A stretch of DNA of 64,000 nt, from NCBI GenBank assembly GCA_964645535.1, contig CAZYCQ010000003.1:32001-96000 (forward strand), read 5' to 3'. Source of the DNA: an uncultured archaeon (GTDB taxonomy: Archaea > Asgardarchaeota > Heimdallarchaeia > Heimdallarchaeales > Kariarchaeaceae). The notes beneath the pieces were generated by a model that saw nothing but the letters and a program-made list of their open reading frames with translations, was not told where the DNA came from and did no database searches. Position numbers and translations under genes: made by a program. Position 1 is the first letter of the stretch. Each line of letters starts with the position of its first letter. Positions 3,613 to 9,600 of this stretch are shown in pieces.

Positions 3613-6600
3613 ATGAAAGTAAGAAAAACGGTTCGAATAGCTCTCATAATTGGGTTAATTGCCCTTTTAGGTGGTTCGACATTTGCTAGTGCTTATGTCG
3701 CAAATTCGAATACACAACAAGTCAATAATCAGTTGGAGGAAAATGCTCACTATTACACATTTCCATCCAATTTGATTGGGATCTTTTATGACCATAAGGA
3801 CGAAGTGGCCAAAACAACTGGTGAGGCCCTAGTCAACTCCTTATCCCTCATGACTCCTAATGTTGAAGGGTATGAGATAAGTAGCTTGGATGCAATTCCT
3901 GAAATTTTTAGAAGAAAGAACTTTGATATTGCAGTCTACGTTTTCCAGAGCGATGCAAATGGATTAAAGATTAATGGAAATTTCAAGGAAATAAGTTATT
4001 CGTGGAGTCGTTCGGCTTCTGTCTTCAATCAGATCATAGACAGATATCCGAATGTGGAACATGTCTTTGCAATGGGAAATACCCTTCAATTGATGAATAA
4101 GTTAAATGATAAAAGACATGTCCATGCATCACAAGAAGAAAAAGTTGACGCTAAACTAATTTACCTCTATGCATTGTGGACTTTGGCGGATATTCTTGAG
4201 GCCAGAGGAGGAAAACATGCTTCTCTAGGAAACGACATTCGAATGGCTTCGCTCAAATTTTTTGCAAATGAATTTAATGATATCGCAGCGAGAAACATTG
4301 AGCCAGAAAGTCCATTGGGCGAAGAATCCCCACGTACAGTAGAAGCTAGAAAACAACGTTTCTTCGAAGAACATCCTCCAAAGGTCGAAAAAATTCCGAG
4401 AGATGGCTATGTGATAGATCCACAAACAAAAAGGGAAATGAATCCGGAAACTGGAGAAATAAGAACTGATGGATATGGAGGAGATATTTTCCCTATTGAA
4501 GCAGCAGGTGTCGGGGATTTTATTGTTAATCTGATACCAGAGGAAACCGGCTTGAGGGGACCGGTTGGAGGAATAGTTGATACTCTATTAGGGTTCCTGA
4601 TCGACAAGATCGGGGATGCAATTGGTTTGGATGCCTCAACCGTAAACCAAATCTTTGATTTGATCACATCAATTCCGGATCTGGTAGGACTGATTTCTGA
4701 CCCATCAGCAAGCAAAATCAAGCAATTTATTGATAAGTTACGCCCAATGCTTCCCATCCCGCAAGATTTGGATCCATATATAGATCTCTTGATAGACGGT
4801 CTATTCCTTTTAAGGGGAGATGGAGGTGACATCCAAAACTTCATTTTTTCAGCTGTAGAAATGCTTGTCCCAGAGGATATCCTTGATCCATCTATTTTGG
4901 ACATTATCAAGAATGTGGTTACCTTAGGACAAAGAGTTTTTGACAGGATATCTGAAGGCGGAAACATCATTGACATTATCTTTAGTGTTCTGAATGAACA
5001 GATTTTGTACAATGTTACCACGGCATTGGTTGGAAATGGAACAATCTTTGGCATGACTGTATCGGAAATTCAGGACTTTGTCCAGAAAGCAAATGCGACA
5101 ATTTCCACCATTGTCAATTTCATTTCCACTAGAGATATTGAAGGATTGATCTATACATATGGTCCAGATTTACTCAATTTTGCATTCTCTGAATTCAATC
5201 TTGATGAGAACTACTCTGAAGTTGTTATGCTTGCAGTTGGTATTTTACTGACTGCTTTGGGCGTTTCTGATGACAAGACGATCGAGGATCAACTTGTGGA
5301 ACTTCTAGACAGATTAACACCAATCGATCTGGCAACCATTAAAGCAAAAGCCGAAGAGATTGTTAAGCTTGTAGGAGAGGCAGTGGAGACTGGAGCCACT
5401 TCGTTAACCGACATGCAGAATTCAATCTCAACCCTGCTGACGGAGCTCTCAATTCCTGCAAGTATAGCGGATCCGATAAATGACCTAATGGCCATTGTTG
5501 TAGCGGCCAAAAATGTAAATCTTAACACATTTCCGTCTTTTGCAGACATGATTCTGAATTTTGCGGAAGGATTGGGGGTTCCCAGCCAATATACGGAATC
5601 ATTGCGTGAGGTTGTTACCTTTGTCATGGGTGTAGTTCAATTCGTAATGCATCCACCTCGTATAGAAGATATTCTCGCCAACATTTTAGGGACATCCTCT
5701 TTGTCGGATTTGATTTCCCAAGGAATTCAGTTCATACTCAATTTTGTCCAAGGGATCCTTCCCACATCAATGACTACACAATCGGTAAGCAATGCACCAA
5801 ATCGATTTGCAGCAATAAAAGTTAATGAAGTACTGACTGCAGAAGACCTCATTTCACAAGCTGGAGACTATATTGGACTCATTTTCCAGGTTATTGAGTC
5901 GGTTCAAGGAAATTCAGTCCAAGGAGTTCTTCTTTCCTTACTGCAAAGTGCCATGACTGTGTTCATTAACTTCGTCCCAGATGATTTCAGACCTCTTGTG
6001 GAAGTTGCTAAGTCTATTTTTGGAGTGATCGTTGGAGAAACAGACCAATTACCTTCAGTAGAAGAGGTTCTGAATGCAGTTCTTCCATTATTGCCTTCTT
6101 CAGTAGCCGATGTAGTTCGACAATTCCTTCCATTCATCATGATGATCAGTGACGTATTTACCAATGGATTTGAAGCCATTTTTGCACAACTCTTTGGTTG
6201 GGTTTCAGGTCTTGTTGAAGATTTAATTGATGAGCTGGTCGGAAGTCTGTCTTCTGCATTGGACGGTGCAGATGGGATTTCGATTGATTTTGATGTCCCA
6301 TTAGGTGTTGGATCTTTTTCACTCTTTACCATCAAACTACATTTTGGATTAGATTTTGGTTTGGAATTTGATGGAGAAGCTTTTGGAAGAATGCTCTTCG
6401 ATTTGATTTTCCGAGGAGCAAGTTTATTCAGTTCATCAGATCCTTTCGATGTCCTCAAAACGCTAGCTTCGGTAATTTCAATCGTACCAATTTTTGAAGC
6501 AGGATTTGAAATAGGAGATTTTGGATCTGGATCAAATAGTTTCTTGGATTTCATGCTTACCTCATTGGGAGTTGATCTTTCATTCTCTGGAGAAGGATGG

Positions 6601-9600
6601 TTTAAGCTCCAACTCTTTTCATTCAAGAATGGAATCTTCAGTTTTGATGATTTCTTCAAGGTTCTTGAATGGGGATTTTCATTTACGATTACCATTAGTA
6701 GAACCTTTACGTTGCTTGATTTTCTCACAGGCGGTGCTGGTGGAAGTCTGAATGCAATTGGAGAATATATCGGGCTGGATGCCATTAGTATTACTATTGC
6801 ATTCACGCTTGCATTTACAATTGTCAAACGAGCAGCCACTGCAAATCAACCAGAGACGGGATCTATGACAATAACGTTTACAATTGGGTTTACCGTCTCA
6901 TTAGGGATCGATATCGTTATTGCAAAACTGATACTCAAAGGAACTTTAGAGATAACCTTGACATTATTGCAAGACTTGGTGGCACCGACACCGTTACGGG
7001 TGTTTATAGCAATTCAATTGACAATAACGGTAACGATAGGTTTCTTGTTCTTTGATTGGGACTTTGATTATAAATGGTCACCAAGTGGATTTGAACCTCC
7101 ATTGGGATATGAATTGACTTCACCAACACCAGAAGATGCAGTCCAGAATGGAGCCCTTGGTGGAGACACTGATGGAGATGGACTTGGTGATGAGTATGAG
7201 AAAAATACAGCAGGACTGAACTATCAGTCTGATGATACAGATGGAGATACCTTAAGTGACAAATACGAAACTCAAACTTTGAAGACCGATCCCGCATCAA
7301 AGGATACTGATGGGGACGGATTGGATGACAACGTAGAATTAGATCTCAAAACCAACCCCTTGTTCCCAGATACAGACTTTGATGGTCTGACTGATTACGA
7401 GGAAGCAAGTATCTATGGTACTAATCCACTTTCAATCGATACTGATGAAGATGGATTGGATGATAAGTACGAGATCTTCCATTCCTATAACATGACGGGC
7501 ATCACACCTTCGGTCAGTCAAATCATGATTGGAGGTGTCCCATATGATGACCGAACGGATCCTTTGAACCCTGATACCGATGGAGACGGCTTATTGGACG
7601 GTGAAGAAGGATCAAGAGGGATCTATTATGGACCCGAGTTAGTCGGAGGAGAGGATGATTATGGATATACTCCAGATCCTCCCCTCATTTTCAATGGAGG
7701 TTATACGCACCCATTGGACAATGATACCGATGATGACTCCTATTGGCAATTATATGACGGATCAATCGCTCCTGTAGAATCTCCCTACATTATGAATCTT
7801 GGAGATAAGGTTGAAATTGAGGGGCTTACCGTTATTTTGATTGACCCATTAACGGGTGAACCTGAGCCTCCACGACTTATCAGGACAAACCCTGTGAATC
7901 CTGATTCCGATGGAGACACAGGTGCTACCGCGGAAGATCGAAAGAACCCTCCATTTGGCTTCTTCATGAACTCCGATGGATACGAGCTCGGTATTGCCCA
8001 TACCGACCCCCTTGACGGAGACACGGATGATGATGGATTGATCGATGGTCTTGAAGGTATTTTGAGGCCAGATTCAAATCATACAGATCCATTGAATCCA
8101 GATACAGATGGAGACGGATTGGGTGACATGCAGGAACTCCTGCTTGGAACAGATGCCCGAAGTGTCGACAGTGATCTCGATGGAGTAACCGATTCCGATG
8201 AATATTTCCTCTACGGAACCAATCCTTTCTTGGCCGACACTGATTCAGACGGATTGGAGGATGGAGAAGAACTGTATCTATACCATTCCTCACCATTTTC
8301 CAAGGACTCTGATGCAGACGGGTTAGATGATTACTCAGAAGTCTGGAAGTATTTCTCGGATCCCATGGATGAAGATTCCGATAATGATGGGCTAACTGAT
8401 TTCGAGGAAATCAAGGTCTACTATACGGATCCATTCATTGATGACACCGATGGAGATGGTCTGTTGGATGGAGAAGAGATTGCAGGCTTGCCATATACGA
8501 CAGAAAACGGAACACAGTATCTGATTAAAACAGATCCAACGAAGTGGGATACTGATGGAGATTCCTTGACCACCATCAATCAATTTGGAGAGATGAGCAT
8601 GCCAATGTCAGATGGACAGGAATTCCTCCTCGGAACAGATCCAACAAGAAAGGACACAGATCTTGATGGCCTGGAAGATGGATGGGAAATGTGGCTCGGA
8701 AAGGGTGAAATCCCCAATTTTGAGCCAATTAATCTTGATCCTCTTTCCAATGATACGGATGGAGATAACCTGATGGATGGAACTGAGTTGGTAATCGCAA
8801 ACATTAGTACGCTACTTTATCCATACGTTGGGAATTTCATTCAAACACCATTCAATACATCAGCAGTCAATCCAGATACTGATGGAGATCAATTGCCAGA
8901 TGATGAGGAATTACGTATCTACGGTACCGATCCAAGCATACCTGACACCGACAATGATACAATTTCAGATTATGAGGAATTGATCATTTATGGAAGTGAT
9001 CCTGTCCGAAATGATACGGATGGCGACGGATTATCCGATCCACAGGAAATTTTCGGTTTTGATCCTGAAAACCTTACTCTTGCAACCAATGCCATCCTCT
9101 TTACGGATTTCAACAAATCAGACTCGGACGGAGATCTTCTTCCGGATGGTGCAGAGGTTTTCTTCTATAATACCGATCCAACCAACCAAGACGAAAATGG
9201 AAATGGCATCGTTGATGGAATGGAGATAGATACAGACGGAGACGGGTTGTTTGACGGCGAAGAGTATTACATCTTCCAAACTCAGCAGACACCAGAAGGA
9301 GGAGGTATCCTTCAGGTGGACAGTGACCATGATGGGCTTTTCGATGGTCAGGAAGTGTATGAAACACTGACAAATCCCGCAAATTGGGACAGTGATAATG
9401 ATACCTATTCTGACGGTTTAGAAATCTATTGTGGAACCAACCCTAATGGCAACACCACAGAGTCTGAGATTTCCGCATGTTTCGCAGGTTTGGAAAGGGT
9501 AGTGATACTCTCCCCAGCTCAAACCACGTATCATACGAATGCAATTCCCGTGATTGTGTATGATGCGACAGGAAATATGACTGCCATGGAATATCGTTAC

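Follow-up and report, generated by a model that had tools for sequence, protein, structure and literature searches.

The locus described here raises the question of what buries the oily side of a large, one-sided β-sheet in the extracellular part of an archaeal surface protein. It lies in a stretch of 64,000 nucleotides from an uncultured archaeon of the Kariarchaeaceae (Asgardarchaeota; GenBank assembly GCA_964645535.1, contig CAZYCQ010000003.1, positions 32,001 to 96,000 of the forward strand), here called the window, where a gene for a giant surface protein contains a block of long amphipathic strands. The approximately 70 large aliphatic side chains on one face of this sheet must be buried by something. 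Whether this is the protein's own core, a partner, or lipid would tell mere adhesion from membrane or lipid handling by Asgard cells. An earlier note on this DNA had read the block as a membrane-inserting or lipid-conducting sheet, an interpretation that is partly supported by the present analysis. The reading favored here, at a probability of roughly 0.45, is that the I/L/F/V-rich side would lie buried, as its core, inside the head at the membrane-distal end of a calcium-stalked giant.

Strand pattern and predicted fold of the block

The pattern of the block (residues 911 to 1179) was explored by sequence statistics. Residue numbers count from the start of the open reading frame (ORF) at position 3544; the probable start codon is M24, at position 3613. 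Runs of at least four strong hydrophobic residues at i, i+2, and so on total 63 positions in the block, compared with 26.6 ± 8.2 (maximum, 58) in composition-preserving shuffles (n = 2000), and the longest alternating hydrophobic runs of the whole 2224-residue protein are located there. The alternation is kept column by column across 66 homologues with 31 to 94% identity. A chance origin of the strand pattern is excluded by the shuffles together with this conservation. The six strands quoted in the earlier note are all present (residues 928 to 942, 1043 to 1057, 1081 to 1093, 1108 to 1124, 1131 to 1141, and 1155 to 1178), and its count of about a dozen is fair, since AlphaFold2 places 10 long strands (9 to 20 residues) and 4 to 5 short ones. 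The claim that one face is hydrophobic holds for the oily side, made up of the 70 strand positions that are hydrophobic on average (90% I/L/F/V); the 89 other strand positions are not only G/T/S (41%) but also charged (32%).

The oily stripes span 7 to 10 alternations (15 to 19 residues), and Y and W together make up less than 1% of the oily side. This side is also more conserved than the polar one (entropy of 1.42 versus 1.99). Its composition and its higher conservation argue that it is core-like rather than bilayer-facing. The most conserved element of the block is a loop-helix with the pattern TLLDFLTGGxGGxLNAIGxYIGLD, and T1056, D1059, G1064, G1077, and L1078 are invariant in the homologue alignment. 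The five helices inside the block and the helix that leads into it are amphipathic, with a helical moment of about 1 to 1.8, which would suit them to lie on the oily face of the sheet. The last strand carries an alternating aromatic pattern in its sequence.

The fold was predicted with AlphaFold2 for the block with its lead-in helix (alignment of 66 sequences; predicted local distance difference test [pLDDT] of 73, predicted template modeling score [pTM] of 0.57) and for residues 51 to 1200 (61 sequences; pLDDT of 76.4, pTM of 0.49). In the block model, the lead-in helix is followed by the ten long strands in next-neighbor antiparallel order, a few short strands, and five short connecting helices; strands 5 to 10 have pLDDT values of 80 to 90. 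The predicted structure is an open, gently curved, single-layer sheet, a "half-barrel" with a geometry like that of the wall of an outer membrane barrel. An ordinary two-layer β-sandwich, the outcome that the earlier note had named as fatal to its proposal, is not what AlphaFold2 returned. Indeed, sandwich, solenoid, and amyloid-type folds are ruled out by the plain next-neighbor meander topology of the model. A two-copy model of the block with its lead-in helix scored 0.00, which gives no verdict and is evidence neither way.

Rigid alignment of the block model with VIA listed only outer membrane barrels among the solved chains. A second-look structural search gave 123 chains at a Z score of at least 8, and the 50 rows listed were all outer membrane barrels. 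The best superpositions were on 22-strand TonB-dependent transporters, of whose wall approximately half was covered (200 to 210 residues; root mean square deviation [rmsd], 4.5 to 5 Å; Z of ∼10), and on the 14-strand CymA (Z of 12; rmsd of 7 Å). Closed 12-strand autotransporter barrels fit poorly (rmsd of >8 Å). Models of the ESM Atlas agreed with VIA, with template modeling (TM) scores of ∼0.5 to TonB-dependent barrels. What the block shares with these walls (those of the TonB-dependent FecA, ChuA, and HasR, of CymA, and of the autotransporter EspP) is long, tilted, antiparallel next-neighbor strands with strict in/out alternation, at VIA Z scores of 10 to 12 over 200 to 220 residues of the model. 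This is, however, in contrast with the lack of any sequence relation, the coverage of only about half of a 22-strand wall, the absence of an aromatic girdle, and the great enrichment in F and I, all in the ectodomain of an archaeal type I protein.

A profile of the 66 blocks found no match among PDB sequences even at an E value of 10, and Pfam searches with all 66 blocks at an E value of ≤5 gave scattered chance matches only (PspC, MerE, and Trypco1). Foldseek against viral models gave no match at an E value of ≤0.001. A feature search of the ESM Atlas showed low recognition, with unnamed Bacteroidota clusters and DUF6603 in 12% of one cluster, and serves as a lead only.

Architecture, family, and partner of the giant protein

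The features of the gene and of its partner are as follows, in window coordinates.

3613 to 10218, + strand: giant surface protein gene, 2201 amino acids from M24; the ORF is open from 3544 (3544 to 10218, 2224 amino acids)
3613 to 3693, + strand: predicted signal peptide or N-terminal hydrophobic segment, residues 24 to 50 (from the sequence; equivalents at homologue N termini)
3742 to 4647, + strand: N-terminal domain (N-domain), residues ∼67 to 368; predicted Rossmann/flavodoxin-like core with a strand-bearing linker (AlphaFold2 pLDDT of 80 to 93)
4648 to 6165, + strand: accessory all-helical domain, residues ∼369 to 874, inserted between N-domain and β block (AlphaFold2 helices)
6166 to 6270, + strand: conserved part, residues 875 to 909, of the long amphipathic lead-in helix (residues 852 to 909 in AlphaFold2)
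6274 to 7080, + strand: one-sided hydrophobic β-meander, the block, residues 911 to 1179, with 10 long and 4 to 5 short strands and five short amphipathic helices
6700 to 6786, + strand: most conserved element of the block, residues 1053 to 1081; R/K1053, then a Gly-rich loop and a helix
7141 to 9423, + strand: array of TSP3-type Ca-binding repeats (stalk), residues ∼1200 to 1960 (Pfam PF18884, E value of 3.2e-29)
9424 to 10098, + strand: putative membrane-proximal β-rich region, proposed from sequence only
10111 to 10179, + strand: predicted C-terminal transmembrane anchor, residues ∼2190 to 2212, followed by a short basic tail (from the sequence)
10230 to 18953, + strand: partner gene, 2907-amino-acid FG-GAP/propeller giant surface protein (Pfam), with predicted signal peptide and C-terminal anchor

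The gene is supported by 68 homologues of approximately 2200 amino acids. Given its signal peptide and its C-terminal anchor, the product is predicted to be a type I membrane protein of the cell surface, with the oily-sheet block extracellular, in the membrane-distal half. Both giants end in short basic cytoplasmic tails (window 10180 to 10218 and 18900 to 18953). In the first of them, GF-K..FKKR stands just past the anchor; it recalls the GFFKR motif of integrin alpha tails but probably reflects just the positive-inside rule. An antisense ORF (5904 to 6839, minus strand, 311 amino acids) overlaps the block and is most likely a by-product of the conserved plus-strand frame.

The TSP3 array covers approximately 760 residues and scores 100.8 bits against a Pfam cutoff of 25 (PF18884), which places the protein among the TSP3_bac repeat surface proteins. 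The repeats begin approximately 20 residues past the end of the block, in line with the earlier note, which had put the block directly before Ca-binding repeats, and they come after the β block in every family member examined, distant ones included. Bacterial proteins of this type, of which Myxococcus CglD is an example, likewise use a Ca-binding TSP3 array as the extracellular stalk of a large surface protein. The present protein differs from them in its head (N-domain and oily sheet), which matches no Pfam family, and in being archaeal, type I anchored, and paired with an FG-GAP giant.

The family was traced in three ways. A word-index search gave the 68 relatives, nearly all of approximately 2200 amino acids, with source names that include Kariarchaeaceae, Hodarchaeales, and Heimdall-, Loki/Promethe-, Thor-, and Odinarchaeota. 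When 1.84 billion representatives were searched exhaustively with a profile, just 55 clusters matched the block. A scan of species-representative genomes gave 44 loci with Heimdall, Kari, Hod, Hermod, Promethe/Loki (including Harpocratesius repetitus and a Promethearchaeum), Thor, and Njord among their titles. Others are labeled just "uncultured archaeon" or "archaeon," which is uninformative, and a further three fall outside the lineage by title, two of them on contigs of <4 kb and one with an old Bathyarchaeota label. The Asgard lineage assumed in the earlier note is therefore borne out by homologue sources and genome titles that are almost all Asgard. In a sample of the phylum, the family is present in 80 of 301 genomes and in 35 of 70 genera. 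By these comparisons, the block appears to be a new, Asgard-specific protein domain without a Pfam family or a PDB sequence relative. No paper describing the oily-sheet family was found in the literature searched; an Asgard lipid-transfer paper concerns START domains (PMC12139934), and integrin-repeat proteins noted in Asgard genomes by others are mentioned elsewhere (PMC9258230).

Length variants of the family bear on the role of the helical domain. Short forms of 1500 to 1600 amino acids (P0096, P0099, P0106, P0107, and P0109) are without this domain of approximately 500 residues and retain the N-domain, the end of the lead-in helix (residues 875 to 909), the sheet, and the TSP3 array. They are 83 to 96% hydrophobic at the same 70 oily positions. 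Since the oily face is kept where the helical domain is missing, this domain is an accessory insertion, and the oily side is buried by something else. The helical domain is shortened in P0051 and P0052, holds approximately 500 extra residues in P0062 and P0077, and so tolerates large insertions. In the precomputed annotation, P0062, P0051, and P0052 carry PKD-type domains, and P0062 also carries Peptidase_M23. The N-domain, by contrast with this dispensable domain, is present in every complete family member, short forms included, and always together with the β block, so that the obligatory unit is N-domain, sheet, and stalk.

The model of the N-domain is Rossmann/flavodoxin-like, with a VIA Z of 10.5 to the SAVED-CHAT protease domain 8tl0, about 8 to 9 to receiver and periplasmic-binding folds, and 7.9 to legumain. 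A Gly-rich motif, GLRGPxGGIxDxLL (residues ∼335 to 349), is nearly invariant, and H173, N179, and D202 are conserved. Caspase-type cysteine protease activity looks unlikely from the family alignment, because no Cys is found among the invariant or nearly invariant columns of the domain. In the model of residues 51 to 1200, the matches to outer membrane barrels begin at model residues 221 to 229, which suggests that the linker behind the N-domain contributes short strands to the sheet. The matches of the N-domain to Rossmann folds extend as far as model residues 1018 to 1037, the helix of the most conserved element of the block. From these two extensions, N-domain and sheet appear to be interlocked in the model, with the conserved loop-helix packing on the N-domain.

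An FG-GAP giant gene adjoins the oily-sheet gene at all six loci examined, which comprise, besides the window, a Loki genome, a Heimdall genome, two short-form loci, and a paralogous pair in the window's own genome. The spacing is usually 1 to 11 nucleotides or a 4-nucleotide overlap, and the two short-form loci have shorter FG-GAP partners with 4-nucleotide overlaps. The paralogous pair (L050; contig C23, 1955 to 19640, minus strand) is the one with swapped order: a 2710-amino-acid FG-GAP gene comes first and overlaps the 2191-amino-acid TSP3/oily-sheet gene by 4 nucleotides. A third overlapping gene there encodes 994 amino acids without a Pfam match. Moreover, P0082 (4348 amino acids) is an in-frame fusion of the oily-sheet protein and its partner that retains the first anchor, a basic linker of approximately 60 residues, and a second signal-anchor, which makes a membrane hairpin, and open frames of 4716 to 4901 amino acids occur in three genomes of one genus (G254, G149, and G093). 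The adjacency and the fusion show that the two giants clearly work together.

What may cover the oily side

In the favored reading, the oily side would be concave and would clamp the N-domain together with the amphipathic helices, both the long one that leads into the block and the five within it, and the T/S/G/charged side would face the solvent. The sheet would act as a rigid platform holding the head, with the helical domain as an optional insertion, on the end of the stalk; binding at the cell surface would be the joint task of this head and the co-encoded FG-GAP propeller protein. Several observations weigh against this reading. We infer, rather than read from the model coordinates, which face of the sheet is concave and which is buried; the pTM is only 0.49 to 0.57, and the conserved loop of the element at residues 1053 to 1081 has a pLDDT of <50. 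The N-domain and the helices may be too small to cover an oily area estimated at ∼2700 Å2, and the invariant basic residue R/K1053 is placed within an oily stripe. Many G/S/T/E/D/Q positions of the polar side are strongly conserved as well, and N-glycosylation sequons are nearly absent from the block (0.2 per sequence), which does not decide the orientation; one would not expect a polar side so conserved and so poor in sequons if it were freely exposed on an archaeal surface protein.

A further possibility, that the oily sheet becomes exposed when needed and deals with lipid extracellularly, seems somewhat unlikely. The sheet would then belong to a lipid-holding head like that of large lipid transfer proteins (LLTPs) such as apoB, or it would be a half-barrel gripping, or inserting into, a vesicle or the membrane of a partner cell. 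The more specific proposal that the oily side contacts lipid, lining an LLTP-like lipid-holding cavity together with the amphipathic helices or docking flat on a membrane or vesicle, is judged unlikely. Its only positive signal came from Foldseek, where the top matches for the N-terminal half were all LLTPs (microsomal triglyceride transfer protein [MTP] chain 6i7s_H, with an E value of 6e-4 and a probability of 0.95; lipovitellin 1lsh, with 8e-4; vitellogenin; and apoB), and MTP was also among the matches of the block alone. Amphipathic helices combined with long amphipathic strands are the signature of LLTPs and apoB, and a helical domain followed by large amphipathic sheets (MTP, lipovitellin/vitellogenin, and the beta-alpha1 part of apoB) is found in the giant as well. 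The persistence of the oily face in the short forms, and an oily area that looks large for a small N-domain to cover, also fit contact with lipid.

These LLTP matches (E values of 6e-4 to 2e-2) are, however, marginal in geometry, with TM scores of 0.08 to 0.13 and rmsd values of >30 Å (0.10 and 32 Å for MTP), and no LLTP chain is among the best 50 VIA rows listed (Z of at least 7.8). No match to Vitellogenin_N or another lipid-transfer hidden Markov model was obtained with Pfam for the whole protein or the 66 blocks. LLTPs have an N-terminal β-barrel, an obligatory, essential helical domain, and two facing amphipathic sheets. In contrast, the giant has a Rossmann-like N-domain, a dispensable helical domain, and a single modeled sheet.

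The oily side might instead be a docking surface for the FG-GAP propeller protein, in an obligate heterodimer analogous to the head of integrin alpha/beta, which we regard as decidedly improbable. The gene adjacency at every locus examined, short forms included, the fusion and the long open frames of one genus, and the type I anchoring of both proteins speak for it, but adjacency and fusion show joint function and not which surfaces touch, and some 70 large aliphatic residues are unusually oily for a protein-protein contact. The likeness to integrin would be one of analogy only: one type I protein has FG-GAP propellers, the other has a Rossmann-type head on a repeat stalk, and the two are co-encoded and sometimes fused. 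Unlike in integrin, no VWA/MIDAS match was seen for the N-domain, and the stalk is made of TSP3 rather than EGF repeats.

A membrane-inserting half-barrel, copies of which would pair or oligomerize into a closed β-barrel pore in the cell's own or a partner cell's membrane, is very unlikely. Of the earlier note's barrel or pore proposal, the part that stands is the one-sided, single-layer sheet with the predicted geometry of an outer membrane barrel wall. In favor of a pore, the listed solved-chain matches are all transmembrane barrels, a sheet of approximately 10 strands curved like a 22-strand barrel would form a closed barrel as a dimer, and the alternating aromatics of the last strand resemble a barrel-closing strand. 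Outer membrane barrels carry aromatic girdles, and their lipid-facing surfaces are usually less conserved. The block shows neither the lipid-facing belt of ∼5 to 6 alternating residues per strand with Tyr/Trp girdles nor this trend in conservation: with so little Tyr and Trp on the oily side there is no girdle, the stripes would exceed the bilayer core in the geometry that we infer, and the oily side is the more conserved one. The sheet, moreover, never occurs apart from the globular N-domain in complete family members, and strands of this domain appear to be part of it. Omp85 (PF01103) was not found in the archaeon's own genome (89.4% complete), and it was found in 7 of 14 control genomes, all of them diderm bacteria; to our knowledge, imaging of Asgard cells has so far shown a single membrane. 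Among β-pore-forming toxins, the Foldseek rows of perforin and pneumolysin had probabilities of ≤0.03 for the block model, and a weak Binary_toxB match falls in the TSP3 array and not in the block.

Kinship with bridge-like (RBG/AsmA/VPS13) or TULIP proteins, as proposed in the earlier note, found no sequence or fold link with Pfam, Foldseek, or VIA: Chorein_N/AsmA-type families gave no match for the whole protein (E value of ≤0.01) or the 66 aligned blocks (E value of ≤5), and neither RBG (VPS13/ATG2/AsmA/TamB) nor TULIP (BPI/CETP/SMP) chains were among the matches listed in any fold search of the block. RBG lipid bridges form a taco-shaped groove of repeated five-strand units; the strands of the block are 16 to 20 residues long in a plain meander. 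In TULIP proteins a strongly curved sheet of approximately 200 amino acids wraps a long helix into a lipid tube; the block is preceded by its long lead-in helix. Descent of the eukaryotic bridge-like lipid-transfer proteins from the block is not supported by the finding.

Genomic surroundings and significance

The giant pair of the window is not inside a larger surface-protein island. Upstream of it are MoaC, MoaE, and MoCF biosynthesis genes and ABC-2 transporter genes, and downstream (window 19076 to 24064) are the beta and alpha subunits of electron transfer flavoprotein and a PPDK_N-domain protein, which belong to ordinary metabolism.

As a giant Ca-binding surface protein with TSP3 repeats, the protein is of a known kind; its head is new. 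Tight partnerships are the way of life of Asgard archaea, and models of how eukaryotes arose give their surface contacts a central place, yet the envelope proteins of these archaea are hardly known. The nearly fixed length of the family, its presence in half of the genera sampled, and an integrin-like propeller neighbor wherever examined make it a prime candidate for a major Asgard surface structure. Its importance for Asgard cell biology would rise sharply were lipid or membrane activity shown. If lipid handling were true, this would be the first β-sheet surface machine of archaea to act on membranes or lipids, and it would belong to the lineage closest to eukaryotes.

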